64,000 bases of DNA from Candidatus Xenobia bacterium. Its GTDB lineage: Bacteria; Vulcanimicrobiota; Xenobia; Xenobiales; QWHO01. A model generated the notes under the pieces. That model did no database searches and was not told where the DNA came from. It saw only the letters and a program-made list of their open reading frames with translations. Location: positions 53,527-117,526 of the forward strand of contig BTUM01000016.1 of assembly GCA_045863235.1 (NCBI GenBank), written 5' to 3'. The position numbers and the translations under genes were made by a program. Within the stretch, counting starts at the first letter, position 1, and each line of letters opens with the position of its first letter. This document shows, one piece after another, positions 14,967-60,953 of this stretch.

Positions 14967-15962
14967 TCAGCAGCGAGCGCCAACCGCTCCCCGCGCTGGG
15001 CGCAACCGGACCATCACTCCGCCCACCTGCACCGCCTGGTCGCCCTCCACGATGCCGCTCCCGGTGCCCTCGATGCTCCACTCGCGGACCTTCTGGGCCT
15101 CCTTGTCGGCCTCTCGGAAGAGCTCCAACTGCGGTTGCCAGCGGTCCAGGATCTCGAGCTGCTTGTCCTGGTCATGGATGATGAGGACGGGCAGGATGGC
15201 CAGTCCGAGCGCCGCGATAGGGAACCCGATGGCCGGGTGGCCCGACCCCGCGATCAGCATCCCGATCCCGAAGGCCCAGGGCGACGCCGAGCCGATGCGA
15301 CCGAGCAGCGCGTCGCGCTGCTTGATCTCGAGGCGCTTGCGCTCCAGGGTCTTGTCGTCGGGACCTTTGAGCCGCTTGAGGTCCTTCTTCAGGAGCTCGC
15401 GCGCCGGTGAGGCTTCGGGCTTGTGCTCCGACTCGAGCACGGTCCGAGTCGCGCGCAGCAGGCTGCGCAGCTGGCCGAGCGTGGCCTCACCACCCAGCGA
15501 GACCGTGGGCGACGCGACCGGGCTCCCGGTGGCCGGCGAGAAGCTCCTGGCGTCGAGCTCCTCCTGCAGGGCTTTGTCCGCCTCCAGAGCCATCTCCCGG
15601 TCCACCTGTTCGACGACGGACCAGAGGCCCACTCCCATGGAGCCTGCGAGACACCCGAAGGAGGCGAGAGTGCCCAGCACCCCGTTCGGCTCTCGCGAGA
15701 TCAGGGTGACCAGCCCGGCCAGGAACGCTCCGCTCAAGAGGAGCTTGCCACCGAGCTTGTAGGTCGCCTTGCGGGCCTGGGAGCGGAGGTGTCGCTGCAC
15801 GTCCTGCACCGTGTCGCCCGGGTTCTTCTCCAGCACGTCGATGCGCTGCTTCACCTGACGGTAGGCGATGTCGGTGGCCGGGTTGGACAGGTGCGGCTCC
15901 AGGCGGGTGGCCCGCTGGCGAAGGTCCTCCAGAAGGTGGGACTTGGCGACCTGCACATGCAT
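14967..15962 (-). CDS. Hypothetical membrane protein with internal duplication and the shared C-terminal motif
   Basis: Start reassigned to ATG 15962 (MHVQVAK) from promoter geometry; two helical + hydrophobic-hairpin units; tail IVEGDQAVQVGGVMVRLR. Confidence 0.7.
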   Translation of the reverse strand: MHVQVAKSHLLEDLRQRATRLEPHLSNPATDIAYRQVKQRIDVLEKNPGDTVQDVQRHLRSQARKATYKLGGKLLLSGAFLAGLVTLISREPNGVLGTLASFGCLAGSMGVGLWSVVEQVDREMALEADKALQEELDARSFSPATGSPVASPTVSLGGEATLGQLRSLLRATRTVLESEHKPEASPARELLKKDLKRLKGPDDKTLERKRLEIKQRDALLGRIGSASPWAFGIGMLIAGSGHPAIGFPIAALGLAILPVLIIHDQDKQLEILDRWQPQLELFREADKEAQKVREWSIEGTGSGIVEGDQAVQVGGVMVRLRPARGAVGARC

Positions 15963-15970
15963 GGCGCCAC

Positions 15971-16003
15971 AGTCTGCACTCCGAGGCTGAAAAAAACCTG
16001 AAA
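15971..16003 (-). promoter_or_regulatory. TTTCAG-N5-TTTCAG promoter element, copy 2
   Basis: TTTCAG gtttt TTTCAG, N10, CAGACT, N8, ATG 15962. Confidence 0.72.
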
Positions 16004-16090: not shown

Positions 16091-16726
16091 ATGGAAGGTT
16101 ACTACACCGAGCTTCTGGCCGCGTTCGTGCGGGGCAAGCTGGGCCTGGCAGGCGAAGCGGGCCTGGACGATCTCATGCAGCAGGCCCGAGCCCACGAGCT
16201 GCGCACCCACAAGTTCAAACGCTCGGCCGCGCTGCCCCGAGTGCGCAAAGTGTTGGGTGTGCTGCAGCAGCTACGACCGGCCAGCCTGCTCGACTTCGGC
16301 ACCGGGCGCGGGGTGTTCTTGTGGCCGCTGCTCGACGAGTTGCCCGAGCTCGCGGTGACGTGCCTTGACCTGCGCCCGGACCGCATCGAAGACTTGCAGG
16401 CGGTGTCCAGGGGCGGCATCGGACGGTTGACCGCTCGACAGGCTGACCTCGCGCGGCCGCTCGACTTTCCCGACCAGAGCTTCGACGTGGTGACGGCGCT
16501 GGAAGTGCTCGAGCACATGCCTGACCCTCTCCCGGCCGTGCGCGAGGCGGTCCGCGTTGCCCGCCAGGCCGTCATCGTCAGCGTGCCCTCGCAAGAAGAC
16601 GACAATCCCGAGCACTTGCGGCTGTACACGCAAGACTCCCTGCAGAAGCTGCTCTACCAGGGCGGGGCGAGCAAGGTGCGGGTGGAGTACGTGCTCAACC
16701 ACATGGTGGCGGTGGCCCGTGCATAA
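16091..16726 (+). CDS. Class I SAM-dependent methyltransferase
   Basis: LLDFGTGRG, FDVVTALEVLEHM, VIVSVP..PEH. Confidence 0.85.
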   Translation: MEGYYTELLAAFVRGKLGLAGEAGLDDLMQQARAHELRTHKFKRSAALPRVRKVLGVLQQLRPASLLDFGTGRGVFLWPLLDELPELAVTCLDLRPDRIEDLQAVSRGGIGRLTARQADLARPLDFPDQSFDVVTALEVLEHMPDPLPAVREAVRVARQAVIVSVPSQEDDNPEHLRLYTQDSLQKLLYQGGASKVRVEYVLNHMVAVARA

Positions 16727-17495
16727 GTATCCCCGCACCCACCACCTGGAGGGCTCGCGCCGCCAGCCCGGGGACGAAGAGCTCGAGGACGTGCCCTACA
16801 CGGCCGTGAGCGGCCGCCACCTGGTGGTGGAGGAGAAGCTCGACGGCGCCAACTGTGCCCTCAGCTTCGAGCCCGATGGCGAGCTCTTGCTGCAGAGCCG
16901 GGGGCACTACCTGACCGGAGGAGGCCGAGAACGCCATTTCGCCCTGCTGAAGACCTGGGCTGCCTGCCACCAGGCCAGGCTGTTCGAGCGTCTGAGGCAC
17001 CGCTACGTCGTCTACGGAGAGTGGCTCTACGCCAAGCACACCGTCTACTATGACCGCCTCCCCCACTACTTTCTCGAATTCGACGTGCTCGACACCGAGA
17101 CGGGCGTCTTCCTCTCGACGCCGCGTCGGCGCGAGCTGCTTGAGGGGCTGCCCGTCGTGTCGGTGCCGGTGCTGCACGAGGGCCAGGCTCCCTCTCTGAA
17201 ACAACTGATCGCGATGATCCGCCCCTCGCTCTACAAGTCGCCCGGCTGGCTCGAGAGCTTGAGCGAGCAGTGCGCCCAGCACGGGCTCGACCCCGAGCAA
17301 GCCGCTCAGGAGACCGATCCCGAAGACCTGAGCGAGGGGCTCTACCTCAAGGTCGAACAAGAGGGCCAGGTGCAGGCTCGCTACAAGCTGGTGCGGGCCA
17401 GCTTTCTCACCGCCGTGCTCGACTCGGGCAGCCACTGGCTGAGCCGGCCCATCCTGCCCAACCGCCTGGCCGACGGGGTGGATCTCTATGCTTGA
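16719..17495 (+). CDS. ATP-dependent RNA ligase family protein
   Basis: GTG start overlapping the methyltransferase; KYPRT.H, EEKLDGAN (motif I), YGEW, EFDV, EGLYLK, YKLV. Confidence 0.85.
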   Translation: MHKYPRTHHLEGSRRQPGDEELEDVPYTAVSGRHLVVEEKLDGANCALSFEPDGELLLQSRGHYLTGGGRERHFALLKTWAACHQARLFERLRHRYVVYGEWLYAKHTVYYDRLPHYFLEFDVLDTETGVFLSTPRRRELLEGLPVVSVPVLHEGQAPSLKQLIAMIRPSLYKSPGWLESLSEQCAQHGLDPEQAAQETDPEDLSEGLYLKVEQEGQVQARYKLVRASFLTAVLDSGSHWLSRPILPNRLADGVDLYA

Positions 17496-18591
17496 GCCGG
17501 TTCCCCGCCCTCCCCACTGGCAGGTGGACTGGGAAGCGCTGGACCGGGCCTGGCCTTTCCTCTGGCCCATGAAAGAGTGCCCCCAGGCCAGCGAATACCA
17601 CGGCGAGGGCAACGTCTGGATCCACACCCGCATGGTGTGCGAGCAGCTGGCTTCTCTGGCCCGCTGGCGCGAGCTGCCGGAAACCGAGCGCGAGCTGGTC
17701 TGGGCGGCGGCCCTGCTGCACGACGTGGCCAAGCCTGCCTGCACCCGGCCCGGACCGGACGGCCGGCTGACTTCGGCTGGTCACGCCCGCAAAGGGGCGG
17801 TGATGGCCCGCGCGCTCTTGTGGCGGCTGGGGGTGGCCTTCGAGCGGCGCGAGCTGGTGTGCGCGCTGATCCGCCACCATATGGTGCCGTTCTGGATCCT
17901 CGACCGCGACGACAGCCTGCGCCTCTTGCTGGAGGTCAGCCTGACAGCCCGCTGCGACCTGCTCTCGGTACTGGCCGAGGCCGACGCCCGGGGGCGCATC
18001 GCGGCCGACCAGCAGGAGCTGATCGAGGACACCTGGCTGTTTGCCGAGTTCGCCCGAGAGCACGGCTGTCTGAGCCAGCCCTACCCGTTCCCCAGCGAGC
18101 ACACGCGCTATGTCTACTTCCGCTCCCCCCAGCGCTCGCCCGGGATGGAGGCCTTTGAGGACACCCGCAGCCGGGTCACGGTGCTGAGCGGCCTGCCGGG
18201 AGCGGGCAAGGATACCTACGCCCGCAGGCTCTCGTTGCCCCAGGTCTCGCTGGACGCCATCCGGGCCGAACTCGGCGTCAAACCCACCGACGACCAGGGA
18301 CCGGTGGCCGAGCGGGCCCGCGAGCGGGCGCGAGAGTTCCTGCGCCGGGGGGAGCCGTTCGTGTGGAACGCCACCAATCTCAGCCGCGAGCAGCGCGAGC
18401 GCTGCCTGGGCTTGCTGGCTGATTACCGCGCCCGCGTGGAGCTGGTCTATTGCGAAGCCGAGCACGACGAGCTGATGCGCCGCAACGCCGAGCGCGAGCC
18501 GCCCTTCCCGGGAGCGGTTCTGGAGCGGCTCTTGGAGCGCTGGGAGGTGCCCGACCTGAGCGAGGCCCACCGCCTCGAGCTGGCCTTCTAA
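17488..18591 (+). CDS. HD phosphoesterase + P-loop polynucleotide kinase (HD-Pnk-like)
   Basis: YHGEGNVWIHT, LLHDVAK, GHA, HH, AD; then GLPGAGKDT, SLDAIR, WNATN. Confidence 0.85.
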   Translation: MLEPVPRPPHWQVDWEALDRAWPFLWPMKECPQASEYHGEGNVWIHTRMVCEQLASLARWRELPETERELVWAAALLHDVAKPACTRPGPDGRLTSAGHARKGAVMARALLWRLGVAFERRELVCALIRHHMVPFWILDRDDSLRLLLEVSLTARCDLLSVLAEADARGRIAADQQELIEDTWLFAEFAREHGCLSQPYPFPSEHTRYVYFRSPQRSPGMEAFEDTRSRVTVLSGLPGAGKDTYARRLSLPQVSLDAIRAELGVKPTDDQGPVAERARERAREFLRRGEPFVWNATNLSREQRERCLGLLADYRARVELVYCEAEHDELMRRNAEREPPFPGAVLERLLERWEVPDLSEAHRLELAF

Positions 18592-18630: not shown

Positions 18631-21378
18631 TTAAGCCCGGTTCCTGCGCCGCACCAGCGCTCCCCCGAAGGCCACGAAGGAGCTGCTCTCCAGCACTCCC
18701 GAGCCGGCTTGCTCGCTGACCACCCCGTGTTCGCGCAGGGCCTGCTCGACGTCGCCGCTCCCCCGAGCGGTGCGCCAGATCTCTAGTCCGCGCTGAAAGC
18801 GCTCGGCGTCGCTCTTCTCGCGCAAAAGGCCGGCCAGCTCGACCCGGGTCAGAATGCCCTGCAGCGTGTGCCACTGCTCCTCGGGCTGGCCGGCGCCCAC
18901 CAGCTCGGTGAAAGCGGCCATCGCCTCAGAGCGGTGCTGGGGACCGAAGCGCTCCACCAGCTCCCCGCCCCAACCGCTCGCCCCCTCAGCCCAGCTCTCC
19001 ACGACCTCGTCGGAGACATAGCCCTGAGTCTGCTCGATGCGCGCCAGGATCGCGCAGGCTCGCTCGGGCTCGACTCCCTGGCGCAAGCGCTCCCGGTCGA
19101 GCTGCTCGAAGTGGTCGTGGGCATTGCTCCTCACCTGGTAGATCGTCGGCTGGCGCGACTCGGGAGCGGCGAGGGCGCGCAGCCGGTCCTCCAGCTCAGG
19201 GGCCCCCTGGGCCAGAGGCAGGGCCAGCACGAAATCGGCCAGATGCTCGTTGGAGAGCTTCTCCAGTGACTCCTGGCCGGTCAGCCGGCTGCCCAGCCAC
19301 AGTCGCACCCGGGCCCTGTCGGCCTCGCTCAGATCGTTCAGCATCGCCAGAGCGGCCCGCAAAGGGGGAAGCTCGAAGGGGTCGCGCTGCTCCTGGGTAT
19401 TGCCCCGATGCACCGTATGCTGCACGCAGATGGAGGCGGCCGCCAGCCGCTCTTGCAGGTCGCCCGACTGCAGGCCGGCCATGGCCTGCTCGAGCACCCG
19501 GTTGCGAGCCTCTTCGACCAGCGGCTCGAACCAGGCCTGGGAATAAGGGAGGCTGGCCTGGAGCAGCTCCCCCAGGCGGGCTTTCGTCTCCGGGGTGAGC
19601 GGGATGGAGGCCAGCACGGCCAGGTGATTGCGCGTCCGGGCATCGCACTCGATCAGACTTCCCGCCCCCGCAAGACCGGAAGCGATGGGGTCGAGCAGGC
19701 GCTTCTCCAGGGCCGGGTCGGGCTCGGGAGCGAGCAGGGCAAAGCAATCGGCCGACCCCTCCCAGCAATTCTTCGCACCGGGAATGAACGACTGCTCCAC
19801 CTTGTCCGAATCGAGCAGGTGAGCCAGCAAGGCCTCGCGATAGGGAACCAGCTGACCCTTCGGGTCGGCCAGCATCAGCCCGTCCAGGTCCAGGCTGCGG
19901 GCCAGCCTCAGAGCCGGAGCGGTAAAGGTGTAGCGGGTCAGGTTCAGCTCGCCCTGTTTGGCCCCCTGCGGCACCATCCAGCTGGTCAGCCAGTCCTTTT
20001 GCAGGGGGTCGGGCTTCCAGCCGGCCTTCAGGGCCGACTCGAAGATGGCGAAGTGGGCCGTATCGGGGTAGCTCGTCTGGCGCTGCCTCAACGTCTCGGC
20101 CGCGATCGCCGGGGCCAGTTGGGGCTGTTTCCTCATCAGGGTGAGCAGGTTGCGCACGCCCCAATTGAGCCCGTCGTAGCTGGTGTTGTTGAGGATCGCG
20201 CCCACCTGGGCTGTCACCTGCTCGGGGTTGGGGGGCGAAATCTCCCACAGGGCCGAGCAGAAGTCCAGGATGCCGCGGCCCTCGATGCCCAGTGCCTCGG
20301 CCCGGTCGGGCACCTGCTCGAGGGCCTGGCGGTGGGGCTGAAACAGCTGGTCCAGCCGAGGACTCTTGCGCGAATCAGAGATAAGCCGCGCCATGGCCGA
20401 CAGGTCCTCGTCGGAGGGGCGTCCGGCGGTAAGCTCCTCGACCAGCGCACGAGCGACCTCAGCGGCCTGCTCGGGCATCGTTTCGGCCAGCACCTCCAGC
20501 CGCTTGACTCCCTTGCGCTCGTTGAGAAGGGGGATCTGCTCGAGGATCTGGCGAGCCGCGGTCCTGACCTCGGCCGACGTGGAGGGCGGCGCTGCCTCGA
20601 GCTCGAGCCGAAGACCCCGCACCGGGACGGGGCCCTCGAGCAGGGTAGCCTCAAGCTCTCCCTCGACCTGACCGTAGCGGCGCAGGAGGTCGCAAGCCCG
20701 GGCGGCCAGGGAGAGATCCAGCTCGACCGGCTCCTTCTCGCGTAGGTCAGGAGCAAGCTCTTCCCGGCTGCGTCGCAGGTGCTTATGGGCCAGCAGCATC
20801 AGGCTGCGCAGGGCCGCCGGCGTGGCGGGCTCCTTCTGCAAAGCGCTTTCGAGCCGATCCAGGGTCAGCTGGACGCGCTCGGCGTCAAAGCCCGAGATGC
20901 GGGCCTCCCAATCGATTCGCTGGCTCGCTCCCTCGACCGGTCCGTAGAACACGCACAGCTCCTCCAACCGGTTGCCCCCGTGGACATTGGACAGGGTCCG
21001 CCGGGCCAGGTAGCGGGTGACCGGGTCGGGGCTTTCGGCCCACTTGTGCGCCCCGGTGCCGCTGACGATCTCGGGCATGGCGCTGGCTCGCTCGGCCAGC
21101 CGCAGCTTGAGGGGCCAGAGGTCGGCGGGGGGTTGCTCGGGGGGCAGGGGCTGTTCAGCTTGCGAGGCTGGGGGCTCGGCAGTGGGGAGAGGAGCGGGTG
21201 CGGAGGGCCCCGGACGCGGGCCTCCCAGTTCGGTCTGGTCCAGCGGGTCGGCCTCGAAAGCCTGGCCAGGCCGGGCGGCCGTCTGGGGACGGGCGGCGGC
21301 AAAGTTTGAGCTCAAGGCACGCAGCTCGGGGGTCACTGTCAGGGGAGTTCTGCCCGGGGCGGGTTGTTTCCCCTCCAA
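18631..21378 (-). CDS. Large helical hypothetical protein with Pro-rich N-terminus and the shared C-terminal motif
   Basis: 915 aa ORF 18 nt downstream of the propeller gene; tail VLESSSFVAFGGALVRRR. Start uncertain. Confidence 0.7.
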   Translation of the reverse strand: MEGKQPAPGRTPLTVTPELRALSSNFAAARPQTAARPGQAFEADPLDQTELGGPRPGPSAPAPLPTAEPPASQAEQPLPPEQPPADLWPLKLRLAERASAMPEIVSGTGAHKWAESPDPVTRYLARRTLSNVHGGNRLEELCVFYGPVEGASQRIDWEARISGFDAERVQLTLDRLESALQKEPATPAALRSLMLLAHKHLRRSREELAPDLREKEPVELDLSLAARACDLLRRYGQVEGELEATLLEGPVPVRGLRLELEAAPPSTSAEVRTAARQILEQIPLLNERKGVKRLEVLAETMPEQAAEVARALVEELTAGRPSDEDLSAMARLISDSRKSPRLDQLFQPHRQALEQVPDRAEALGIEGRGILDFCSALWEISPPNPEQVTAQVGAILNNTSYDGLNWGVRNLLTLMRKQPQLAPAIAAETLRQRQTSYPDTAHFAIFESALKAGWKPDPLQKDWLTSWMVPQGAKQGELNLTRYTFTAPALRLARSLDLDGLMLADPKGQLVPYREALLAHLLDSDKVEQSFIPGAKNCWEGSADCFALLAPEPDPALEKRLLDPIASGLAGAGSLIECDARTRNHLAVLASIPLTPETKARLGELLQASLPYSQAWFEPLVEEARNRVLEQAMAGLQSGDLQERLAAASICVQHTVHRGNTQEQRDPFELPPLRAALAMLNDLSEADRARVRLWLGSRLTGQESLEKLSNEHLADFVLALPLAQGAPELEDRLRALAAPESRQPTIYQVRSNAHDHFEQLDRERLRQGVEPERACAILARIEQTQGYVSDEVVESWAEGASGWGGELVERFGPQHRSEAMAAFTELVGAGQPEEQWHTLQGILTRVELAGLLREKSDAERFQRGLEIWRTARGSGDVEQALREHGVVSEQAGSGVLESSSFVAFGGALVRRRNRA

Positions 21379-21396: not shown

Positions 21397-22530
21397 TCAG
21401 CCGGGTGCGAGCCTCTTCTTGAGTCGTACCGAGCCGAAGCGGACGCTGCCAGCATCCTCGGTCACGGCCGAGGAGGAGTCCTCGGGAACCACTCGCAGCT
21501 CGAGGCGGCTCACGTCCCCGTTGCGCCGGGTGACGTAGAGCCAGCCCTCGGGCCCCCGGGCGGCGCCCACGATGTCCGAGGGAACCTCCAGCTCCTCGCC
21601 CAGGCAGATCAGGCGCGGCGCGCTCTTGCTCCCGGTGATCAGAGCTCCGTCCGACCCCATCGTGTTGACCTCCAGAGTGGGATCCACCGGCAGCTTCTCC
21701 ACCAGGCCCGGCAGCACGCCCCGCTCGCTCCCATTCGCATCGAAGAGGTGGACCGCGCCTCCAGCCAGTGCCAGAGCGATCGAGCCGGGAAGGCCCAGCC
21801 CCGGCTGGCCGGGCAGACTGAACTCGCCCAGGGCAACGTCCATCTCCACGCGACCCGTGGCCGGCTGGAGAGCCACCAGGTGGTGGCGCATCCCCGGCTC
21901 CATGGTGATGAAGTAGTAACGCCCATCGGGACCGAGCCGGGGAGGACGCCCGGCGATTCCGGGCAGATCTTTCAAGCGCTTGCTCTTGAAGAGCAGGGAG
22001 GTAGGGTCGTAGCGCACCACGCGCCCCTGGTTACCGACCAGCAGCACCGACTTGCCCGGTCCCGGGAGCACGAAGAAACTGTGAGGGGTTCCCAGCGCGT
22101 CGTGAATCCTGGCCTTCTCATTGCCGTCGGGGTCGAAGGCCAGCAGCATGCATCCTCGGGTCGAGACGTAGATGCGCTCGCCCTGCACCACCGGCGCGTT
22201 CATCGGCTCAAGGAGAGGTCGGGCCCAGAGCAGCTTACCCTCGGGGCTGATCCGGTGCAGGTTGCGACCGCCCAGGACGTAGACCGAGCCGTCGGGCGCA
22301 GGCGTCGGGGGGTGCTCGAGCGGGCCTTTCAGCCGGCAGCTCCACACCGGTGCTCCGCTCGCATCCAGGGCCTGCAGGTTGCCCGAGCGGTCGCCCGCGT
22401 AGACCCGGTCGGCCGCCAGGACGGGAGGCAGATCCACCGGCTCGTCCGCCAGCCGGGCCAGGGTGGTCAGCACGGGCCGGGGGGTCCCAAACAGGGTCGC
22501 AGCCGCAGTGCTCGAGGAGACGGTTGCCAT
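21397..22530 (-). CDS. PQQ-like (BamB-type) beta-propeller protein with the shared C-terminal motif
   Basis: Start reassigned to ATG 22530 (MATVSS); repeats VYAG..G.L.ALD..G...W and P.PAPDGSVYV; tail VTEDAGSVRFGSVRLKKR. Confidence 0.75.
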   Translation of the reverse strand: MATVSSSTAAATLFGTPRPVLTTLARLADEPVDLPPVLAADRVYAGDRSGNLQALDASGAPVWSCRLKGPLEHPPTPAPDGSVYVLGGRNLHRISPEGKLLWARPLLEPMNAPVVQGERIYVSTRGCMLLAFDPDGNEKARIHDALGTPHSFFVLPGPGKSVLLVGNQGRVVRYDPTSLLFKSKRLKDLPGIAGRPPRLGPDGRYYFITMEPGMRHHLVALQPATGRVEMDVALGEFSLPGQPGLGLPGSIALALAGGAVHLFDANGSERGVLPGLVEKLPVDPTLEVNTMGSDGALITGSKSAPRLICLGEELEVPSDIVGAARGPEGWLYVTRRNGDVSRLELRVVPEDSSSAVTEDAGSVRFGSVRLKKRLAPG

Positions 22531-25627: not shown

Positions 25628-27385
25628 TTACCCTGCCACGAGCTCTCCGGCCAGCCAGGCGCGCAAAGCGGCCGGGTACCAGTCCCAGGTCCCCTCGAAG
25701 CGGGCCGCCAGCGACTGAAGGCCATGCTCGCGCAACTCGCCAGCCAGCTCGGCGCGGCGCTCGGCAAAGCCGCTGGAGAGCTGCTCGGTGCCAAAGTGCA
25801 CGCTCTCCTCGCACAATCCCCAGGCTTTGCGCACCAGGGCCGCCAGCGGGTCGGCCGGGGGGTCCAGGGCGATCAGGGGTAGATCCCAATCGGGGGCGGG
25901 CTCCTCCAGATCGGGCACCACCACGCGGTCGGGGGTGCGGAAGGCGACCGGCTCGAGCACCAGGTCGCCCGCCTCGTGGCGCAGAAAGCCGCTCACCTGG
26001 ACGGCCGACGGCAAGCCCCGGGCCAGCGCGTCCAGAGCGCCGGGCACGGCCCCCTCGTAGGCTCGCGCGATGCGCACCTCCTCCCCCTCCGGCAGGACGG
26101 CGCTGGCCACGATCTCCTGCTCGCCCGGGGCGTAGGCTACCTCCACCTCGGCCAGGCTCAGCACCACGAAGTCCTCGGCCAGAACCAGGGGGCGCAGCAG
26201 GCGCGGCGGGCGGGGAGGAAACTCGAGCGACTGCAGCGACTCGGGCAGCGACTCCCAGGCCTGGCCCAGGGGCATCACCGAGTGCTTGCTCTTCTCGCGC
26301 CTCAGAGTCAGGCTGCGGTTGGCGTGGCGGCGCACGCCCTGGCTGACCAGCTGGCCCCGGGCCAGGTCGCGCAGGCGCACGTCGCCGGCCAGAGTGACTC
26401 CCGGACCGGTGTAGGCGCGCTCGAGAACCAGCACCTGGCCGGCCGGGTCGGCCAGGTAGAGCCGTACCCGATCACCCTGAATGCGGGCGCCCAGCGAGAT
26501 CAGTCGCAGGTGGTCGAGTTCGGTCTCGGGCGCGGTGTCCTGGCCCAGCACGTAGGTAGCCGACAGCTCGCTCACACCGGCCAGGCGGGTCCGCAGGCTG
26601 AGCAGGGCAAAGGCCGCCTCGCCCACCTTGTAGCGACCCGAGCTGGCTTTGTAAAGCGCGAGCTGCTCTTGCAGGCTGTCGAGCAAGACCAGCGGCCAGG
26701 TCATGCCCGCCAGCTGCCGGCGAGCTCTCTCGAACTGGGCCTCCAGGCCTTCGGCGTGGACGACCCCTTCGCGCAACAAACGCTCGCTCAGGGCCTCTAC
26801 GGCCGAAAGCTCGTGGCGGCGGGATCGGGTGGCGCCGAACTCGACCGTCTGCTGACCCTGGCGGGCAGCCCAGACGGCCAGGGCCAGGTGCGCGCAGGCT
26901 CCCTTGTCAGCGCAGTCGCAGCGAGCCATGGAAAGCTCGCGGGGCACAAGAAAGCGCACCGAGCAGGTGGGCAGGCGCACGGCGGCGCCCTCCACCTGGG
27001 CCCGAAAGCCCTTCGCCAGCAAGGCCCGGGCTTTCTCCAGCAGGCGCTTGCCCAGAAAGCGCTCCAGCTCCTCGTCGCCGATCTCACCCGGACTCCAGGG
27101 CACTTCGTCCGGGGCCTCGCCTCGCGGGTAAGCCAGGGCCACCGCCACCCGGTGGCGGCAGACGGTGGTGGCGAGGCAGGTGCAGTTGCCCTGAGCCAGG
27201 CTCTTGCCGGGCGGCAGCGTGGCCACCACGCCGTCCTCGAAGATTCCCCGCACGGTGCCGTCGGGGTCTTCTTCCAGGCGCGGGCCCCTGCCCTCCTCAA
27301 TCTCGCGGGTGGCCCGCTTGACCAGCCCCATGTTGGACAGAGCCGCGATCGCCTCCGGGGTCAGGGCGGCCAGGTCGCTGCGCAT
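25628..27385 (-). CDS. SWIM zinc-finger protein (YehQ-like)
   Basis: Two CxC-x4-CxH motifs (CTCLATTVCRH, CDCADKGACAH); ALSNMGLVKRA N-terminus. Confidence 0.75.
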   Translation of the reverse strand: MRSDLAALTPEAIAALSNMGLVKRATREIEEGRGPRLEEDPDGTVRGIFEDGVVATLPPGKSLAQGNCTCLATTVCRHRVAVALAYPRGEAPDEVPWSPGEIGDEELERFLGKRLLEKARALLAKGFRAQVEGAAVRLPTCSVRFLVPRELSMARCDCADKGACAHLALAVWAARQGQQTVEFGATRSRRHELSAVEALSERLLREGVVHAEGLEAQFERARRQLAGMTWPLVLLDSLQEQLALYKASSGRYKVGEAAFALLSLRTRLAGVSELSATYVLGQDTAPETELDHLRLISLGARIQGDRVRLYLADPAGQVLVLERAYTGPGVTLAGDVRLRDLARGQLVSQGVRRHANRSLTLRREKSKHSVMPLGQAWESLPESLQSLEFPPRPPRLLRPLVLAEDFVVLSLAEVEVAYAPGEQEIVASAVLPEGEEVRIARAYEGAVPGALDALARGLPSAVQVSGFLRHEAGDLVLEPVAFRTPDRVVVPDLEEPAPDWDLPLIALDPPADPLAALVRKAWGLCEESVHFGTEQLSSGFAERRAELAGELREHGLQSLAARFEGTWDWYPAALRAWLAGELVAG

Positions 27386-33102: not shown

Positions 33103-33942
33103 TCAGCCACCCCGCCGCTTGAGCACCACGCCTCCCACCGCCACACCGCGACCGAGCTGGCCGATCGAGCTGCCCTGGGGCTCATGCTGCTCTTTCAGGG
33201 CCAGCACCTCCTGGAGCGAGCGCATCGCCCCCCCTGCAATCATGGTGTTGAGCTGGTTGCCCCCTTCGTGCTCTTCCCAGAAATTGTAGTTCGAGAACCC
33301 TTTGGTGAGGAAGTCGAGGCTCTTGCGGGTGCAGTCGAGCTGCTGCTCGGGGTCAAAGCGCGCCACCAGGTTGGCCAGTGCCCGGACGTGGGCGAAGCCA
33401 GGCTGCTCGGGGTGCCACTGGTCCGACTCCACCGAGGCGGCCATGGTCCGACCCAGCTGTACCAGCTGGCTGGGGGCGAGGTCCTGGTCCAGAGCCTCCA
33501 TGGCCAGGTCCACCGGACGACCGGCGCAGTAACGGGCCTGGGTCTGCTCGCGGCTCTGGCGCACCAGGCAGGGCCCCTCGGTCTGGGGCAATTGCGACTC
33601 ATCGCCCAGGATCGCCAGGGCCAGAGAAGCCACCGGTCGGTCCTGCAGGGCACCAAACAGAAGGTTGGCCGCCTGCAGGCGAAGCTCCGGCTCGTGGGCG
33701 GGGATCTGCCTCACCAACTCGCGCCCCCGCGTCAGCATGGCCTCGCCCGACATGGTCTTCAGTTCTTCCACCGCCGCCAGGTTGCGGGCTCGTTCGGCCC
33801 GCTGGGCAGCGATGTAGGCCTGCGCCTCGGCCAGCGCCTTGTCGTAGTCCGACTGCCCGGACCGGTAGGAATCGCCCGAGGAGCTGGCCCGGGCGGGCAG
33901 ACTGAGCTGGTTGTGAGTGAAGACATGGGCGCCGATCCGCAT
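33103..33942 (-). CDS. Hypothetical helical protein with the shared C-terminal motif
   Basis: MRIG.. low-complexity N-terminus; tail IGQLGRGVAVGGVVLKRR. Confidence 0.7.
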   Translation of the reverse strand: MRIGAHVFTHNQLSLPARASSSGDSYRSGQSDYDKALAEAQAYIAAQRAERARNLAAVEELKTMSGEAMLTRGRELVRQIPAHEPELRLQAANLLFGALQDRPVASLALAILGDESQLPQTEGPCLVRQSREQTQARYCAGRPVDLAMEALDQDLAPSQLVQLGRTMAASVESDQWHPEQPGFAHVRALANLVARFDPEQQLDCTRKSLDFLTKGFSNYNFWEEHEGGNQLNTMIAGGAMRSLQEVLALKEQHEPQGSSIGQLGRGVAVGGVVLKRRGG

Positions 33943-37125: not shown

Positions 37126-37164
37126 GAGGGCCGCGTTCGACCGCCCGGGGTGGGTTCCCTGGGT

Positions 37165-37197
37165 TGTCAGGCTCCTTTCAGCCGTCGGGCTTACACT
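37165..37197 (+). promoter_or_regulatory. TTTCAG-N5-TTTCAG promoter element, copy 5
   Basis: TGTCAG gctcc TTTCAG, N10, TACACT, N7, ATG 37205. Confidence 0.7.
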
Positions 37198-37204
37198 GTT
37201 CCCT

Positions 37205-38356
37205 ATGCTGCGACCCGTGTACGCCGCCTCGGCCAACCCGCTCTACGCGCTGCAATCTCGGCGCGAGAACGAGGTGGTGGCCTGGCGCGAGAAGTTTGAG
37301 GGCGACTCCTGCCGCCACCCCTCTGGCTCGGTGGTGGTGAGCGACGGCCAGCGCCTGATCAAGCTCTCCGAGACGGGCCATAGCGAGTGGAAGGTGGACA
37401 ACGGCAAGTGGACTCCTTTCCGCCCGGCCGCCTTGCCCAACGGCGGCGCGGTCTGGTCGCCCGGCGGGAAGGGCATCACTTTCTACACACCCGGGGGCGC
37501 GGTGCAGAAAGTTTGGGGGGGCGAGCACCAGACCCAGACCACCGTCCCCACCGTGGCCCCCGATGGCACCGCTTACGTCTGCCTGCGCACCGAGGACGGC
37601 TCGGTGCTGGCCGCCCTGCGAAGTGACCAGGACGAGCCTGTGTGGGTAGCCAGACTCCCCTTCTTCGGCTCCGGGCCGTGCCTGCCGGATGGGCAGGGCG
37701 GCGTGATCTTCCGCACCGACGACGACCGGGTGCTCTCCCTCGATAAGGACGGCCAGGAGCGCTGGTGCCAGAAGCTGCCCGTGCGGGTCGACGGCCAGCT
37801 GGCTCTGGGCCCGAAGGGCGAGATCTACATCGGCTCGGAGAAGGGCCAGGTCTACCGTCTGGCCCCCGAGGACGGCGCTGTCACCCCCTTCTTCAAAGCC
37901 CGCAAGGCGGTCAGGGCGGCGCCCACGGTGACCGAGGAGGGCCGGGTCTACCTCACCAGCTTCGACCACAACCTCTACGCCGTCAGCCCCGAGGGCAAGG
38001 AGTTGTGGCACCACGACTGCGAGGACCTGGTGGACAGCTCGCCGGCCGTGCTCGATGACGAGACCGTGGTGGTAGGCAGCAACGCTGGCAAGGTCTGGGG
38101 CCTGTCTCCCGAGGGCGAGGAGCGCTGGTCGCAGGAAGTCGATTTCTGGGTCGAGGGCGCCATCCTGAGCGACGGACGCACGGCCTACGTGGCCGGCAAG
38201 GACGAGGTGGTGGCTCTGCGCCCGGGTGGCATCGCGGCCGACCTGGACGACTTTGCGATCGCGCCCGCCAACCAGGTCGGCGAGCACGGGGGCAAGGTGG
38301 TGGTGGGCGGGGTGCGTCTGCCACGCTGCACCCGGCGTGGAACAGGCTGCGACTGA
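37205..38356 (+). CDS. PQQ-like beta-propeller protein with the shared C-terminal motif
   Basis: Start reassigned to ATG 37205; repeats PTVAPDGTAYV, IYIGSEKGQVY, VYLTSFDHNLYAV..G.E.W; tail VGEHGGKVVVGGVRLPRC. Confidence 0.8.
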   Translation: MLRPVYAASANPLYALQSRRENEVVAWREKFEGDSCRHPSGSVVVSDGQRLIKLSETGHSEWKVDNGKWTPFRPAALPNGGAVWSPGGKGITFYTPGGAVQKVWGGEHQTQTTVPTVAPDGTAYVCLRTEDGSVLAALRSDQDEPVWVARLPFFGSGPCLPDGQGGVIFRTDDDRVLSLDKDGQERWCQKLPVRVDGQLALGPKGEIYIGSEKGQVYRLAPEDGAVTPFFKARKAVRAAPTVTEEGRVYLTSFDHNLYAVSPEGKELWHHDCEDLVDSSPAVLDDETVVVGSNAGKVWGLSPEGEERWSQEVDFWVEGAILSDGRTAYVAGKDEVVALRPGGIAADLDDFAIAPANQVGEHGGKVVVGGVRLPRCTRRGTGCD

Positions 38357-55117: not shown

Positions 55118-56353
55118 TCAAGGCGTCTTCTGGGCCTGCAGGTAGGGGCAGTTCCGGTTGGCGCCCGCCGTGCGGTAAGCGGCCAGCCGGGCCCGGTTGA
55201 GCTCGCCCCAGGGCCGCAGGACTTCGCGGTCGGCGGCCTGGCTGTGGGGCTCCTTGTTCTTCCAGACCGAAAAGCGAGTCTGCTCGGCCAGGTCGGCCTG
55301 CCGCCTGGCCTCGGCTGAATCGCTCTGGCGGGGGATCACGATCTCGCCCGCCGTCACCCAGGGCCCGCTCCAGCTCTCGCGGGCGTCGTAGGGGTCGTCC
55401 CCGGGCTGCATGAACTGAAGCTCCAGGCGCCAGCGCGTGTCTTTCTGGCTGGCCCGCTGCTCCATCTCGCTGGCCTGCCGCTCGGAAGAGGTGGCCCCCC
55501 TGCTCGCAAGGGGCGTGGCATCCCCTTCGGGGACTGCCCGCAGCTTGACCAGGTATTCCTTGCCATCCTTGCCCTGCAGGGCAAAGGGGGCCCGGCTCCA
55601 GGCCGTGAGGCCGGCCAGGCTGTCGAGCTCGGTGCGCATGCGCTTGACATCCATCAGCATCTTGACCCCGCTCAACGGGCCCACCTCGCTGGCGATCCGA
55701 CCCAGGCCGACCAGCTTGTTGGGATGGTTGATCATGTTGAACAACGCCAGCTGGGCCTCGGCGTCGCGGGCCTGGGAAACCTCGGTGAGCGGGCTGCCTC
55801 CGGTCAGCAGGATGTCGGTGGCCTGCCCGTCCGTCCCGTAGAGCTCGAGCGCCATGCCGAACATGCTGGCCCCGTCCGGGCCCGGCTCGTTGCTGGCGTC
55901 GGAGAAGCGGATCAAGCCCTCCTGCCGGTCCTCACTGAAGAACTGAAAGCGATTCTTGAGAGCGGGATTCCAGTGCACCTCGACCCCACTGCCAAAGAGC
56001 TGCTGGCGGTGCACCGGCCGGCTCATTCCGGGAGTCCCCTCGACCTCGGCCTGGCGGTGCTGCAGCCCGGTGATCTCGCGCCGGGTCTGATCGTCGAACA
56101 GCACCGCCTCCTGCCCGCTGCGGCTGTTCTCGGGCACGTCTGTGACGGCGGTGGCCAGCACCGGAGCGAGATCCCCCCAGACCAGGGTAGGCTGGCTGAC
56201 CGGCAAGCTCAGGACCGGCTTCGCAGAGAGCTGGCGACGGGGCTCTGTCGCGTAGCGCTCTACCTGCTGCAGGGCGTCCAGCTCGGCGGGCGCGCTGGGA
56301 ACCGGGCCCAGGCCGCGAAATGATGTGGACGGGGGAAACAGGTTGACTTGCAT
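55118..56353 (-). CDS. Catalase-related heme protein (hydroperoxide-metabolising type) with N-terminal extension
   Basis: Start ATG 56353; RPVH distal His, IRFSDAS, GMALEL, LELQF, RPWGELNRARLAAY proximal Tyr. Confidence 0.7.
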   Translation of the reverse strand: MQVNLFPPSTSFRGLGPVPSAPAELDALQQVERYATEPRRQLSAKPVLSLPVSQPTLVWGDLAPVLATAVTDVPENSRSGQEAVLFDDQTRREITGLQHRQAEVEGTPGMSRPVHRQQLFGSGVEVHWNPALKNRFQFFSEDRQEGLIRFSDASNEPGPDGASMFGMALELYGTDGQATDILLTGGSPLTEVSQARDAEAQLALFNMINHPNKLVGLGRIASEVGPLSGVKMLMDVKRMRTELDSLAGLTAWSRAPFALQGKDGKEYLVKLRAVPEGDATPLASRGATSSERQASEMEQRASQKDTRWRLELQFMQPGDDPYDARESWSGPWVTAGEIVIPRQSDSAEARRQADLAEQTRFSVWKNKEPHSQAADREVLRPWGELNRARLAAYRTAGANRNCPYLQAQKTP

Positions 56354-56362
56354 GGCGCCCTC

Positions 56363-56395
56363 ATCCAAGCTTTGCCCCCTGAAAGAACTCTGAAA
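56363..56395 (-). promoter_or_regulatory. TTTCAG-N5-TTTCAG promoter element, copy 7
   Basis: TTTCAG agttc TTTCAG, N10, TTGGAT, N9, ATG 56353. Confidence 0.68.
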
Positions 56396-56468: not shown

Positions 56469-58925
56469 ATGGTCATCACTGCCGCCCAGCCAATTCTCTC
56501 TCGCTCTCATAAGGCGCCGCGCGTTGAACACTTCAGGAATTGGCGCGGCGCCGTTCAACAGATTGTCCACACTCCCGCGCGTTCCAATTCTGAACAGGTT
56601 AACGCGCGGGAGTGTAGCCCGGAAGACACCCTTCAGACCGCCCGCCGACTGCTCGAGCAGAACCAGGTCGAGCAGGCCATCGCCTTGCTCGAGGCCTCCC
56701 CCGGAGCCGCGTCCTCCCCCGTGCTGCAGGCCATGCTGGGAGCCGCCTACTTCCGCAAGGAAGATTACCAGGCCGCCATCACGCACTATGAGAAAGCCCA
56801 CCAGCTCGAGCCCGAGAACCCCGAGTATCGCGAGCGCCTCGAGCAGGCCGTGGCCAACCAGCTCAGCGACGTGAGCTACGACCCCGGCAAGCATCCCTTC
56901 GACAAGGAGGTGCTGCTCGGCCCTCCCCGCCCCGGCGAGGTCAACGAGCAGGGGGCCAACCACACCCCCGAGCGCGGCAGCCTGGCCCGCCGCCTGGCCA
57001 TCGGCAGCCTGAAGGTGGCCGGCTATGCCGCCGGCGCCCTGATCGGGGGCGGGCTCGGCCTGTTGGCCCGGGCTTTCGGCCAGCGTGAGAAGGACGAAGT
57101 CTGGACCACCTGGTCGCGCAAGAACTACGTCCAGGGCCTGCTGACCCTGGCCCAGATGCGCTATGAGCTCGACCACAACAACCTGCATGACAGCTACCAG
57201 GCTCAGGGGCAGCTGGTGGGCTTCGTGCAGCCCGGCATGAAGGCTCCCGAGTGGACCACCTGGGCCCGCACCGCCGACGGCAGCTGGAACAACCCCGACA
57301 ATCCCAAGGAGGGGGCGGCCGGCACGCGCTTCGGGCGCAACGTGCAGCCCTCCGCCACGGTGGTGGATCCGGCCACGCTGCTCGACCCCAATCCGCGTGA
57401 GATCAGCCGGGTGCTCCTGACCCGCGATCAGGGCTACAAGGCCGTGCCCTTCCTGAACCTGATGGCCGCATCGTGGATCCAGTTCATGGTGCATGACTGG
57501 GTCAGCCACGGCGAGAACCGTGGGGCCGACGCGGGCTTCTACGAGATCCCGCTGGGCGAGGACGACCCGGTGCGCCAGAAAAACCACATGACCCACATGT
57601 TCGTGCCCAGGACGGCCGAGGACCCGACTCGCCGGCCCGAGGAAGCCGGCACGCCTCCCACCCACGTCAACGAGGTGACCCACTGGTGGGACGGCTCGCA
57701 GATCTATGGCAGCGATCTGGCGACCCAGAATAAGCTGCGCTCGGGGCAAGACGGCAAGATGCGCCTGGACGCCCGCGGCAACCTGCCGCTCGGCTCGGAC
57801 GGCGTCGAGGAGACGGGCTTTCGGCGCAACTGGTGGCTGGGCTTGAGCATGCTGCACACCCTGTTCGTGCGCGAGCACAACGACATCTGCGACATGCTGA
57901 AAAAGCAGCACCCCGACTGGACCGACGAGCGATTGTTCCAGGTCGCCCGGCTGATCAACGCCGCCCAGATGGCCAAGATCCACACTGTCGAGTGGACCCC
58001 CGCCATCCTGCCCAATCGCCTCCTCAACGACGCTATGAACGCCAACTGGTCGGGGGCCGTCAGTCACCAGCTGGTGAACCGAAAAGACCGCAAGACGGAT
58101 GCCCCCTGGGAGCCGACCGACCACATCCTGGGCGGCATCGTGGGCCACCACACCGACAAGTTTGGCATCCCCTTCAGCCTGACCGAGGAGTTCACCGCCG
58201 TCTACCGCCTGCACTCGCTTCTGCCCGACAGCCTGCAGCTACGCAAGATCGGCGACAGCGACGGGGTGGAGGTGCCCCTGGGCCAGACCCGGGCCAAGGC
58301 CTCGCATCGCCTCACCGATTCGCTCTCGATGGCCGACCTGTTCAGCTCGTTCGGCACCATGCAGCCGGGCCAGCTGGTGCTGAACAACTACCCCAAGACC
58401 CTGCAAGACCTGAGCATCCCGGGCTTTGCCGCCTACGACCTGGCCGCCATCGACATCCTGCGGGACCGCGAGCGGGGGGTGCCTCGCTACAACGAGTTCC
58501 GCCGCCAGCTGCAGCTCAATCCCATCACCAGGTTCGAGGACCTGAGCGACGATGCGAAGGTGGTCAGCGAGCTGAAACGGCTCTACCACAACGACATCGA
58601 GAAGATCGACCTGCTGGTTGGCACGCTGGCCGAGAGCCACCGGCCCCAGGGCTTTGGCTTCGGCGAGACCATGTTCCAGGTCTTCATCCTGAACGCCAGC
58701 CGCCGCCTGCAGGCCGACCGCTTCTTCACCACCAGCTACAACGCCGAGACCTACACGCCCGAGGGCCTCAAGCGCATCGACCAGTGCACCATGAAGGGCC
58801 TGCTCTTGCGCCACTACCCGGACCTGGCCGCCACCGGGCTGGGCAACGTGGAGAACGCGTTCGAGCCGTGGGACCAGGGAGCCCTGGACCCGGCCCGTCA
58901 TCCGCTTGCCAATCTGCGGGCCTGA
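56469..58925 (+). CDS. TPR + heme peroxidase-cyclooxygenase superfamily enzyme (fatty-acid dioxygenase-like)
   Basis: TPR LGAAYFRKEDYQAAITHYEKA; RTADGSWN, WIQFMVHDW, THWWDGSQIYG, EEFTAVYRLH, RDRERGVPRYNEFRR. Confidence 0.88.
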   Translation: MVITAAQPILSRSHKAPRVEHFRNWRGAVQQIVHTPARSNSEQVNARECSPEDTLQTARRLLEQNQVEQAIALLEASPGAASSPVLQAMLGAAYFRKEDYQAAITHYEKAHQLEPENPEYRERLEQAVANQLSDVSYDPGKHPFDKEVLLGPPRPGEVNEQGANHTPERGSLARRLAIGSLKVAGYAAGALIGGGLGLLARAFGQREKDEVWTTWSRKNYVQGLLTLAQMRYELDHNNLHDSYQAQGQLVGFVQPGMKAPEWTTWARTADGSWNNPDNPKEGAAGTRFGRNVQPSATVVDPATLLDPNPREISRVLLTRDQGYKAVPFLNLMAASWIQFMVHDWVSHGENRGADAGFYEIPLGEDDPVRQKNHMTHMFVPRTAEDPTRRPEEAGTPPTHVNEVTHWWDGSQIYGSDLATQNKLRSGQDGKMRLDARGNLPLGSDGVEETGFRRNWWLGLSMLHTLFVREHNDICDMLKKQHPDWTDERLFQVARLINAAQMAKIHTVEWTPAILPNRLLNDAMNANWSGAVSHQLVNRKDRKTDAPWEPTDHILGGIVGHHTDKFGIPFSLTEEFTAVYRLHSLLPDSLQLRKIGDSDGVEVPLGQTRAKASHRLTDSLSMADLFSSFGTMQPGQLVLNNYPKTLQDLSIPGFAAYDLAAIDILRDRERGVPRYNEFRRQLQLNPITRFEDLSDDAKVVSELKRLYHNDIEKIDLLVGTLAESHRPQGFGFGETMFQVFILNASRRLQADRFFTTSYNAETYTPEGLKRIDQCTMKGLLLRHYPDLAATGLGNVENAFEPWDQGALDPARHPLANLRA

Positions 58926-59009
58926 GGGGTCACATTCTGGCAAACTTCATCCCCCTCATGGGACGCTGGATCAACGGGACGCTCGACGGGTTGGCCTCAA
59001 AATGCCGGT

Positions 59010-60953
59010 ATGCGAATCGATACCATTTCTTCCTTCGTGCCCACCCATCGCGCGACCCGGGCCACCCCCGCGGCCGTGGCGGCGCCTCCCGCCGACACGG
59101 TGGAGCTCTCCAGCGCCCCCCTCCCCACCCGCTCCTGGTTGTGGTCCTCGCTGGCCTCGGCCGGGCTGCTGACCGCCGAGCTGGTGCAGGGTCCCATCGC
59201 AGCTCGCCTGAGCGTGCTGCAGACGCTGGGCCTGGAAGAGGTCCTGCGGGCCTTCCAGGAGCAGGGCGGCAGGCTGCTGGGTGACAACAACCTGCTTGGC
59301 CTGGTGCTGACCCTGGGCAAAGAGAAGCGCGAGCTGACCAGCGAGCAAGCCCTGACCACGCTGGTGAAGGGGGATCGTCTCTGGGTCCAGCCCCCGGGAC
59401 AGGAAGACCCGACCCGGGTGGAACGGCTGGATACCCTGGCGGCGGTCGATGCGCTGCTGCTGGGAGCTCGCCCCGAGGTGACCTCGGCCCCCCACCGCAT
59501 CCATGCGTTGAAGAACCTCAGCCAGGCCGGATACCAGTTCCCGGGCGGTCTGGTGCAGGCTTACACCGACGCCCGGGTCGAGACCGTGCGACCCTCGGGC
59601 GGCGCATGCACCAATCTGAGCCAGGCCAGACTGGGTGCGGAGGACTACTTCCGGATCAGTCACGACCCGAACGCGCTCGAGCACCCCGATTTCGCGGTGG
59701 AGCTGGAAGCCAATCGCGACGCTTTCGAGGAGCCCCTGGAGGGGATCTATGCCGACGCTCATGATCGCCACTGGGGCGCGGAGCTGAAGCACCGGGGGCT
59801 GACGCTCACCGAGCTCAAGGAGCCGACCGTCTCCGAAGCCAGCCTGGCTGCCGAGCGAATGCGCACCGGCCGGCGGGTGCTCGAGCAGGTCTTCGCAGAG
59901 AACGCCAACTACACTGCCGGGCAGATCACGCGGGCGGTGGTGCACCGCTCCGGTGGAGTGGACCCGGTGGCCGCCGCCACGGTGCTCGACCGCATCCAGC
60001 GCGCCGATCCCAATCACGCTTTTCGCTGCGACGTGAACGATCTCTACGCTCGCGAGCTCAAGAACGGACACCGCGGCCCCGAGCTGCTGCAAAGACTGGA
60101 GATGATGGCCGGGCTGATCCACGCGACCACCATGGCAGACGTGGAGGAGTCAACCAACTACCTGCAGGGCCGCGGCCCCATCCCGCAGTATGCGGCCCTG
60201 GCCAGGGTGACCGGGGGCGAGAAGGCACGGGAGTTGCTGGCCCAGGCCGAGTTGGTGGACCAGCCCGACCTGGACATGCTGGTGCGCCTGGCCACGGCCC
60301 AGGCCCTGACCGGCAAGGAGGTCGACTGCAACCTGCTCTCCCGCGACTTCGGGCTGCTCTCCCAGCCGGGGGGCAGCGAGGCGGTGCGGCAGGCCTTCGA
60401 GCAGGGTCTGCAGGACGGCCACCACGACCTGACCGCCCTGCGGGCCCTGGCGGCCCTGCGCCAGGTCTCCCCGGAAGAGCTCGAGCGCCTGAGCCGCCTG
60501 GTGCCAGAGCCCCGCGTGGACCTGCCTGCCGTCTTGACCGGCCAGCAACCCGGTGAGAGCGCCCAGCAGGCATTTGCTCGCTATACGAGCCTGCAAGAAA
60601 GCCAGGCCGGGCCGGCCGTGGCCGCACGGGTCTTTCCCTGGCTCGGGCCGCACCAGGAGGAGCTGATGACGCTGGTCGAGTGCCTGGGTCGGCTGCGACG
60701 CGCCCCGGAGGCCGGCGAGGTCTTCCTGCGTCTCAAGAAGCTGGCCGGGGACGACCTTGCTCCCGCGGTGGACCGGTTCGTGCAGAACTTCCTGCTCAGC
60801 GACGACATCGAGCAGGCTCTGAGCGGAGTGGATCACACCCGCCAGGGAGCGGCCGTCGCCGTTGAGGAGAACGTGGTCCGCATCGGGGGCGCATCGCTCA
60901 AGATGCGCGCCGGGTCAGGCTCAGGCAAGGTAGGTCAGCGCCCTTCCGTGTGA
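59010..60953 (+). CDS. Hypothetical helical protein with low-complexity N-terminus and the shared C-terminal motif
   Basis: MRIDTISSF..PADTVELSS; tail VAVEENVVRIGGASLKMR. Confidence 0.7.
   Translation: MRIDTISSFVPTHRATRATPAAVAAPPADTVELSSAPLPTRSWLWSSLASAGLLTAELVQGPIAARLSVLQTLGLEEVLRAFQEQGGRLLGDNNLLGLVLTLGKEKRELTSEQALTTLVKGDRLWVQPPGQEDPTRVERLDTLAAVDALLLGARPEVTSAPHRIHALKNLSQAGYQFPGGLVQAYTDARVETVRPSGGACTNLSQARLGAEDYFRISHDPNALEHPDFAVELEANRDAFEEPLEGIYADAHDRHWGAELKHRGLTLTELKEPTVSEASLAAERMRTGRRVLEQVFAENANYTAGQITRAVVHRSGGVDPVAAATVLDRIQRADPNHAFRCDVNDLYARELKNGHRGPELLQRLEMMAGLIHATTMADVEESTNYLQGRGPIPQYAALARVTGGEKARELLAQAELVDQPDLDMLVRLATAQALTGKEVDCNLLSRDFGLLSQPGGSEAVRQAFEQGLQDGHHDLTALRALAALRQVSPEELERLSRLVPEPRVDLPAVLTGQQPGESAQQAFARYTSLQESQAGPAVAARVFPWLGPHQEELMTLVECLGRLRRAPEAGEVFLRLKKLAGDDLAPAVDRFVQNFLLSDDIEQALSGVDHTRQGAAVAVEENVVRIGGASLKMRAGSGSGKVGQRPSV

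Follow-up and report, generated by a model that had tools for sequence, protein, structure and literature searches.

A portable C-terminal module on unrelated proteins of a Candidatus Xenobia bacterium, and its likely use as a cargo label for a flagellum-derived type III secretion system

Six genes within a 64,000-nucleotide stretch of contig BTUM01000016.1 from the Candidatus Xenobia assembly GCA_045863235.1 – the whole of this stretch being referred to here as the window – end in recognisably the same sequence of 18 residues. Our analysis confirms that this sequence, which we call the tail or tag, is a real and uncatalogued C-terminal module carried by unrelated proteins without visible signal peptides. 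As to its role, we favour on balance, and with moderate confidence, a docking label that part of the cargo of a flagellum-derived type III secretion system has in common. The tail would then most likely work as a cargo label of a known kind, on an apparently undescribed flagellum-derived secretion system.

A terminal module on unrelated proteins

Translation recovers each of the six stretches on the strands and at the positions given in Table 1, between 2 and 14 residues before the stop, and all six carriers are long open frames retained as genes by a codon-model caller. The initial annotation had described the carriers as differing in body, with two beta-propellers among them; a Pfam scan bears this out, returning two PQQ-type beta-propellers and four proteins without a match. 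The profile matches listed on the window's contig are the six tails only.

That the tail is more than a chance resemblance was established by a census of the whole genome (G000; 8.36 Mb in 166 contigs, 65.8% GC, 97.6% complete), which yielded 108,809 stop-to-stop segments in six frames and 7,041 genes called by a crude codon model. A hidden Markov model built from the six window tails matched 116 called genes at the main cut-off of at least 8 bits, and 109 of these matches lie no more than 20 residues from the stop, against 6.6% expected by position; internal placement is thus not equally frequent. With the seeds removed, 103 of 110 gene matches at this cut-off are near the stop; at other cut-offs the near-stop matches in called genes number 87 of 92 (10 bits) and 133 of 143 (6 bits). 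Non-gene segments – 10.7 million residues, 4.5 times the residues in genes – gave 16 matches at 8 bits, 11 of them near a stop, and some of the 16 may be genes that the caller missed. The 109 terminal tags are a lower bound. Their consensus comprises a linker of Gly, Ser, Pro and Ala followed by [VI]-x-E-x4-[VI]-x-[VI]-G-G-V-x-[VL]-x-[KR]-R, after which come 0–25 variable residues.

Seven gene matches are not terminal by this measure. Two sit 24–25 residues from the stop, one is the first of two tags in a protein that itself ends in the second, three precede a beta-repeat region of about 200 residues, and one, in an ABC-ATPase-like protein, is judged by eye to be chance. Four copies are internal (one in the two-tag protein, three before the repeat region); because of these, a free C-terminus is not strictly required, and the tail appears to be a movable domain end with no need of a free carboxyl group. 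The repeat region, of the form [YF]-N-P-x-x-G-x-V-E-[FW], stands directly after the internal tag and has no Pfam match (loci L002, L003 and L004; contigs C135, C32 and C3 of G000).

Structure prediction points to a small folded unit. AlphaFold run on the tail alignment gives three strands (pLDDT 76–83); in its model of a whole propeller carrier the tail strands (residues 349–364) follow a short helix and linker and lie outside the propeller, at a pLDDT of 67–76 as against about 90 for the propeller itself. Tail alignments A2, A3 and A6 have an alternating beta pattern with charged residues, and the first two strands resemble, by eye, the start of a PQQ blade. The tail is predicted, then, to be a three-stranded beta-meander separate from the fold of its carrier. 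The small beta-hairpin with a basic end that had been proposed for it stands in so far as this is a beta module, but the model has three strands rather than two and the basic end is not universal (see below).

No Pfam, NCBIfam or PDB family matches the tail. A comparison of 44 tails with Pfam gave four single-member matches only (best E 0.021), and 30 tails against NCBIfam gave one, likewise single-member (E 0.055); a PDB sequence search returned only a 10-residue stretch of the cytochrome P450 DoxA (E 0.8). A fold search with a 41-residue model found no match of Z≥2 among 48,161 PDB chains, a result that is uninformative at such small size, and ESM Atlas gave no usable match to the tail region.

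The carriers are a varied set. Of 22 further G000 carriers scanned against Pfam, 18 gave no match and four proved to be PQQ-type propellers; among 17 database carriers scanned, eight are PQQ propellers. The longest carriers reach 1,634 residues, and some are rich in Lys and Asn. The absence of Sec and lipoprotein signals first remarked upon in the six extends to the larger set: none is visible among 109 carrier N-termini, judged by eye over the first 30 residues from crude starts. Many open with M-x-I/V and a stretch rich in Ser, Thr, Pro and Ala, often with a D-x-[VF]-x-x-S motif; about 45 of the 109 start M-x-I/V with an early proline, a count made by eye from crude starts and with no background rate. 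Openings of this kind, as counted by eye here, resemble those of type III substrates.

Within the window, carrier 2 has a low-complexity N-terminus, carrier 3 probably starts at 22530, where an ATG opens an N-terminus rich in Ser, Thr, Ala and Pro, and carrier 6 begins with a stretch rich in Ser, Thr, Pro and Ala that has a D-x-V-x-L-S motif. The tag also ends the three paralogs or homologs of carrier 6 that were read, in one of them in the acidic form described below. Beside carrier 6 is a gene for a TPR-fused animal-type haem peroxidase (56469–58925, +). Three tagless proteins of the window (4518–5018, 5159–6424 and 55118–56368) have similar S/T/P-rich N-termini, which suggests that the candidate export set may be larger than the tagged set.

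Distribution and an acidic variant

Profile A3 was applied to 44 genomes of the class, with at most 150 candidates scored per genome. It gave 125 matches in G000 and 85–145 in four relatives of the same genus; 17, 22 and 0 in family f4; 5–6 in four of five genomes of genera g8 and g9; and one in family f5. Family f2 yielded one weak match across 16 genomes, and genera g3, g6 and g7 one weak match across 14. Five other families of the phylum carry the tag, at up to 22 copies per genome, and outside the class three of 20 chosen genomes bear it (12, 15 and 18 copies). Among 401 genomes of the phylum, the large family f15 has one or two weak matches in 45 of 297 genomes; the single f15 match that was read is internal and looks like chance. 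The unpublished genome G391 enters the analysis through this tally only. Six of six matches read in families f3, f4, f11 and f19 are terminal (seven of 20 fetched loci were read).

A search of 1.84 billion representative proteins returned 19 that pass E 0.001. Eighteen of these end 1–17 residues from the C-terminus, several being seeds or near seeds, and the remaining one is a low-complexity repeat protein. A protein search with a 41-residue profile added little (22 matches among 8,000 scored candidates). Among five named tagged database proteins, three are labelled Candidatus Eremiobacteraeota and one Armatimonadetes, while one has a protein name only; further labels on tagged proteins, including Firmicutes and Proteobacteria metagenome-assembled genomes, could not be verified.

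Homologs of the carriers in genus g5 of family f2 end differently: their tail is acidic, lacks the basic end and turns at Gly-Asp. When five of these tails were made into a profile, it gave 19 matches in genome G013, three of them seeds, and the best eight of the 16 others, when read, were all terminal. An enlarged acidic profile finds 19 in G013, of which 11 are seeds, and 18 in G090, of which one is a seed, with 0–1 weak matches in g2, g3, g4, g6 and g7. Basic and acidic profiles align with one another at 90% probability (E 1.4e-6). What the tails conserve is thus a beta pattern of hydrophobic residues together with the glycine of the turn, and not the charge. The basic end, originally taken as a defining trait, is not essential, since the g5 tails are acidic.

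The acidic variant also rules out a basic signal resembling a nuclear localisation or type IV secretion signal, and it shows that to treat family f2 as tagless was wrong for g5; g2 and g4 are still negative with either profile. Lineages bearing the tag are f1, g5, g8, g9, f4, f11 and f19; in g2, g3, g4, g6 and g7 it was weak or not found.

An export machine and the role of the tail

The evidence supports a plausible export machine encoded in the genome. One cluster of G000 holds flgB, flgC, fliE, fliF, two fliG, fliH, fliI, fliJ, fliK, a 271-residue FlgE/F/G-like gene, fliM, two fliN, fliO, fliP, two fliQ, fliR, flhB and flhA; a complete type III export apparatus (FlhA, FlhB, FliP, FliQ, FliR, FliI, FliH, FliJ, FliF, FliG, FliM and FliN) is in this single cluster. 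Neither flagellin/FlgL (PF00669) nor the FlgI P-ring (PF02119) was found in G000, and the one MotA/ExbB-family match lies on another contig. Flagellin/FlgL is missing in 16 of 21 genomes; each of the other five encodes, besides flagellin/FlgL, a second full-length FlhA, and the G000-type cluster is therefore distinct from their motile flagellum.

Some 4–6 kb downstream of the cluster lie three identical tandem genes for an 81-residue protein and, by them, a 533-residue gene whose C-terminal part is 41% identical to it; G000 has nine matches to this subunit. By language-model features the protein resembles HrpA/HrpE pilin clusters (0.91, 180/256; PF09589 on 23% of members), which makes its likeness to HrpA pilin a lead and not a family match. 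Within the class 38 of 44 genomes encode the subunit, and within the phylum 53 of 121; no tag-rich genome lacks it, while none of 45 genomes of f15, the family with only one or two weak tag matches per genome, has it. There are, in addition, five stand-alone FlhA cytoplasmic-domain proteins (Table 1), two of which are fused to a FliG N-terminal domain; such copies likewise occur in all 21 genomes scanned. No SctC secretin, SctD, translocon or CesT-type chaperone was seen among 47 open reading frames in the 38 kb around flhA (the contig's last 5 kb or so unread), the CesT search being uninformative as no control matched.

We propose that the tail is a portable beta-meander of about 18 residues, which many unrelated proteins bear behind a flexible linker, and that the carriers may be substrates of a non-motile, flagellum-derived type III system with an HrpA-like filament. 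In the manner of type III substrates, cargo would enter by its low-complexity N-terminus. Through its hydrophobic face (V/I at consensus positions 1, 8, 10, 13 and 15) the meander could bind a single partner common to the carriers, either a general chaperone or an adaptor associated with the gate. This partner would hold tagged cargo before export and deliver it to the gate, acting perhaps as FlgN, FliS and FliT do on the C-terminal parts of flagellar export substrates. The last strand would have changed its charge along with this partner, so that most lineages have a basic version and a single genus an acidic one. A bolder scenario, offered tentatively, is that a branch of the Eremiobacterota, independently of the injectisomes known so far, made the flagellum a delivery machine, retaining its basal body and exchanging flagellin for an HrpA-like filament. 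More than 100 effectors would then be labelled twice, by an N-terminal type III signal and by a universal C-terminal meander read by a new class of receptor, the charge of which co-evolves with the tag.

YbjN-like proteins were considered as a dedicated reader and rejected: G000 has seven, none was found in the tag-bearing G049, and two tagless genomes have one each. A complex prediction that combined the tail with a YbjN-like protein and the cytoplasmic domain of FlhA scored 0.00, which is uninformative either way. At L120:430–1800 a tyrosine-phosphatase-like open reading frame (HCxxGxGR, by eye) lies directly upstream of a conserved cytoplasmic YbjN-like protein of 153 residues, which belongs to the type III chaperone fold family; in the window, a YbjN-family match falls on a protein that seems to begin with a signal peptide (48167–48658, -).

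Other machines were looked for in five genomes. The contractile sheath (PF04984) and the type VI secretion protein TssC (PF05943) were found in none, their controls matching; nor was the encapsulin shell PF04454 (control matched in three of 14; other encapsulin families not searched), nor, in five tag-bearing genomes, VirB4/TraG (PF19044; control matched in seven of 14; VirD4 not searched).

Several observations weigh against a docking label for type III cargo. Far more genomes have the machine than have the tag, and the tag is therefore not needed for export in general: genera g2, g3, g6 and g7 have the 81-residue subunit and at most one weak tag match per genome, and seven small-genome families have no tag. 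Co-occurrence of tag and subunit is weak evidence, related genomes not being independent. Carriers are scattered in the genome, none having been seen to adjoin the export cluster, and carrier neighbourhoods in low-copy genomes revealed no common machine gene in the five of ten regions read, each in part. Some carriers have no low-complexity N-terminus, among them carrier 1, whose N-terminus is not S/T/P-rich either. The tag tracks PQQ-propeller carriers more closely than it does a secretion machine: a propeller query that retained its own tail finds homologs at E 1e-15 in 13 of the 44 genomes of the class, which almost coincide with those bearing the tag, with mismatches in G053 (tags, no propeller match) and G019 (a propeller match, no clear tags), and neither in G086. 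Then, too, the 23 PilB/PilT-family ATPases of G000 and its three secretin matches, on contigs other than the export cluster's, leave another export route open. Finally, the known sites of flagellar chaperones are disordered regions bound by helical chaperones (PMC8527033), and a tail that is folded, as modelled, would be unlike them.

These points give substance to alternatives, the best placed of which retains export. The carriers could be type III cargo whose tail acts afterwards, by attaching the protein to the filament, to the surface of the producing cell or to some molecule of a target cell. The machine can do without the tag in many lineages, the tail leaves the channel last and could refold alone, and three proteins have a further repeat region behind it. 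A switch from basic to acidic over some 20 proteins of one genus, however, better fits a co-evolving partner in the producer, and we think a role after export unlikely, if worth keeping in view.

The close co-occurrence of tag and propeller fits instead an intracellular assembly module – for self-association or for binding to a scaffold or to the propeller proteins – unrelated to export. The blade-like first strands are in its favour, as is a single hydrophobic face, which would need a partner. Assembly nonetheless leaves the lack of signal peptides and the low-complexity N-termini unexplained, the tail lies outside the propeller in the model, and all-acidic tails would probably self-associate poorly; we give this alternative little credence.

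Improbable, in our view, is reading of the tail by type IV filament machinery (PilB/PilT-type ATPases and secretins) in contact-dependent, Sec-independent export. The ATPase family is greatly expanded in the four tag-rich genomes G000, G049, G013 and G053, whose counts are 23 (in G000), 26, 32 and 38, whereas a small genome without tags has 12; secretins are present, and one carrier adjoins a pilT pair; but ATPase number follows genome size, the adjacency was seen once, and cargo of type II systems and type IV pili normally has Sec or Tat signals. Quite as hard to credit is a role in turnover, with a protease or AAA+ unfoldase using the tail as a degron or as a handle for unfolding. Basic C-terminal tags are ClpX signals, and a terminal position after a flexible linker would suit such a handle; yet the motif is trailed by variable residues, four copies are internal, charge flips between genera and the module is modelled as folded. 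A compositional artefact of GC-rich frames, in which G, V and R are common and single chance matches do occur, is refuted by the terminal position, by the few matches in non-gene residues, by near absence from 14 large genomes of g2 and g4 and by the tag's presence on Lys/Asn-rich carriers.

Table 1. Tags and their carrier genes in the window, and export-related loci elsewhere in the genomes
Feature	Location	Strand	Remarks
Tag 1	15000..15053	-	10 residues before stop; 331-residue carrier, gene 14967..15962; no Pfam match
Tag 2	18643..18696	-	3 residues before stop; carrier of about 901 residues, gene 18631..21336; no Pfam match
Tag 3	21412..21465	-	4 residues before stop; PQQ-type beta-propeller, gene 21397..22530 (start inferred)
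Tag 4	33112..33165	-	2 residues before stop; 279-residue carrier, gene 33103..33942; no Pfam match
Tag 5	38276..38329	+	8 residues before stop; PQQ-type beta-propeller, gene 37205..38356
Tag 6	60855..60908	+	14 residues before stop; 647-residue carrier, gene 59010..60953
Flagellar-type export/basal-body cluster and 81-residue genes	G000:C27, about 54,300-79,400		L025, L026
Stand-alone FlhA cytoplasmic-domain protein	L027:6013-7437		
Stand-alone FlhA cytoplasmic-domain protein	L028:5974-7257		
Stand-alone FlhA cytoplasmic-domain protein	L029:5632-6897		
Stand-alone FlhA cytoplasmic-domain protein	L030:5867-7858		
Stand-alone FlhA cytoplasmic-domain protein	L031:4659-6911		

Neighbouring genes, known systems and significance

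Two further gene groups in the window deserve mention. SWIM, VWA-CoxE and DUF5682 genes stand in a row, with a MoxR-like AAA_5 ATPase 5 kb away (25628–30652, -, and 36040–37236, -, together); the set looks like a split module of the YehL/M/P/Q type. A three-gene run (16091–18591, +) encodes a 211-residue protein of no known kind, a probable RNA-ligase-like protein (by eye) and a protein combining HD with an AAA_33 kinase, and is possibly an RNA repair module.

We know of no type III system for which a shared folded C-terminal label has been described. Elsewhere such labels exist: the C-terminal domain (CTD) of type IX secretion and the XVIPCD of Xanthomonas type IV secretion are folded, C-terminal and borne by many unrelated cargo proteins, but measure some 80–120 residues against about 18 for the tail, which has no Pfam or NCBIfam match and for which no VirB4 was found. 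Type IX cargo has Sec signals; the size of the tail, the missing Pfam match and the lack of visible signal peptides all disagree with the CTD (Por/Gld genes were not searched). Cargo peptides of family 1 encapsulins are likewise terminal and place a hydrophobic-x-hydrophobic-Gly pattern and basic residues after a flexible linker; a shell gene is missing from all five genomes searched, however, and the carriers are far from small.

A further parallel lies in the flagellum, whose chaperones bind substrate C-termini and dock them on FlhA (PMC8527033). The pairs FlgK/FlgL–FlgN, FliC–FliS and FliD–FliT are like the tail in that a C-terminal region of a signal-peptide-less protein is involved and a flagellar-type gate is present in the cell; these regions are, however, substrate-specific and on structural subunits, whereas the tail is common to more than 100 unrelated proteins and has no known cognate chaperone. 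Tripartite CTERM signals (LPXTG, PEP-CTERM, GlyGly-CTERM and MYXO-CTERM), as outlined in bioRxiv 10.1101/2023.06.07.544157, are also short terminal domains that recur on 20 or more otherwise unrelated proteins of one genome and often finish in basic residues; the tail differs in having no transmembrane helix, in carriers without a visible signal peptide and in a basic end that is not universal.

For the apparatus itself, the intermediate type III systems of Myxococcales (PMC3459982) and the Hrp pilus offer the closest likeness: flagellum-derived, without flagellin and with a short helical HrpA-like filament subunit. The G000 cluster differs in keeping FlgB, FlgC, FliE, FliG, FliM, FliO and a FliF-type ring, most of which are missing in the Myxococcales systems of that account, and its gene content suggests that the flagellum was re-used separately here. 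Among the papers listed by searches of open-access PMC and bioRxiv, none has a title or abstract opening that describes tail or apparatus, though supplements on the Eudoremicrobiaceae may name the type III cluster. Among PMC9259500, PMC11484240 and bioRxiv 10.1101/2021.03.24.436479, two papers on that family mention secretion systems annotated or expressed in it, with no types given in the passages concerned, and relatives of the lineage have been proposed as predators (bioRxiv 10.1101/2021.03.24.436479).

With the tag as a guide, more than 100 proteins can be listed as candidates for delivery, most of them without a known family (18 of 22 sampled), and the pair of basic and acidic variants would provide a direct handle on finding the reader by co-evolution. 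A flagellin-less apparatus with an HrpA-like filament would represent another natural transition from flagellum to secretion; and if the tail is indeed a docking label on its cargo, it would constitute a new targeting rule for type III export.

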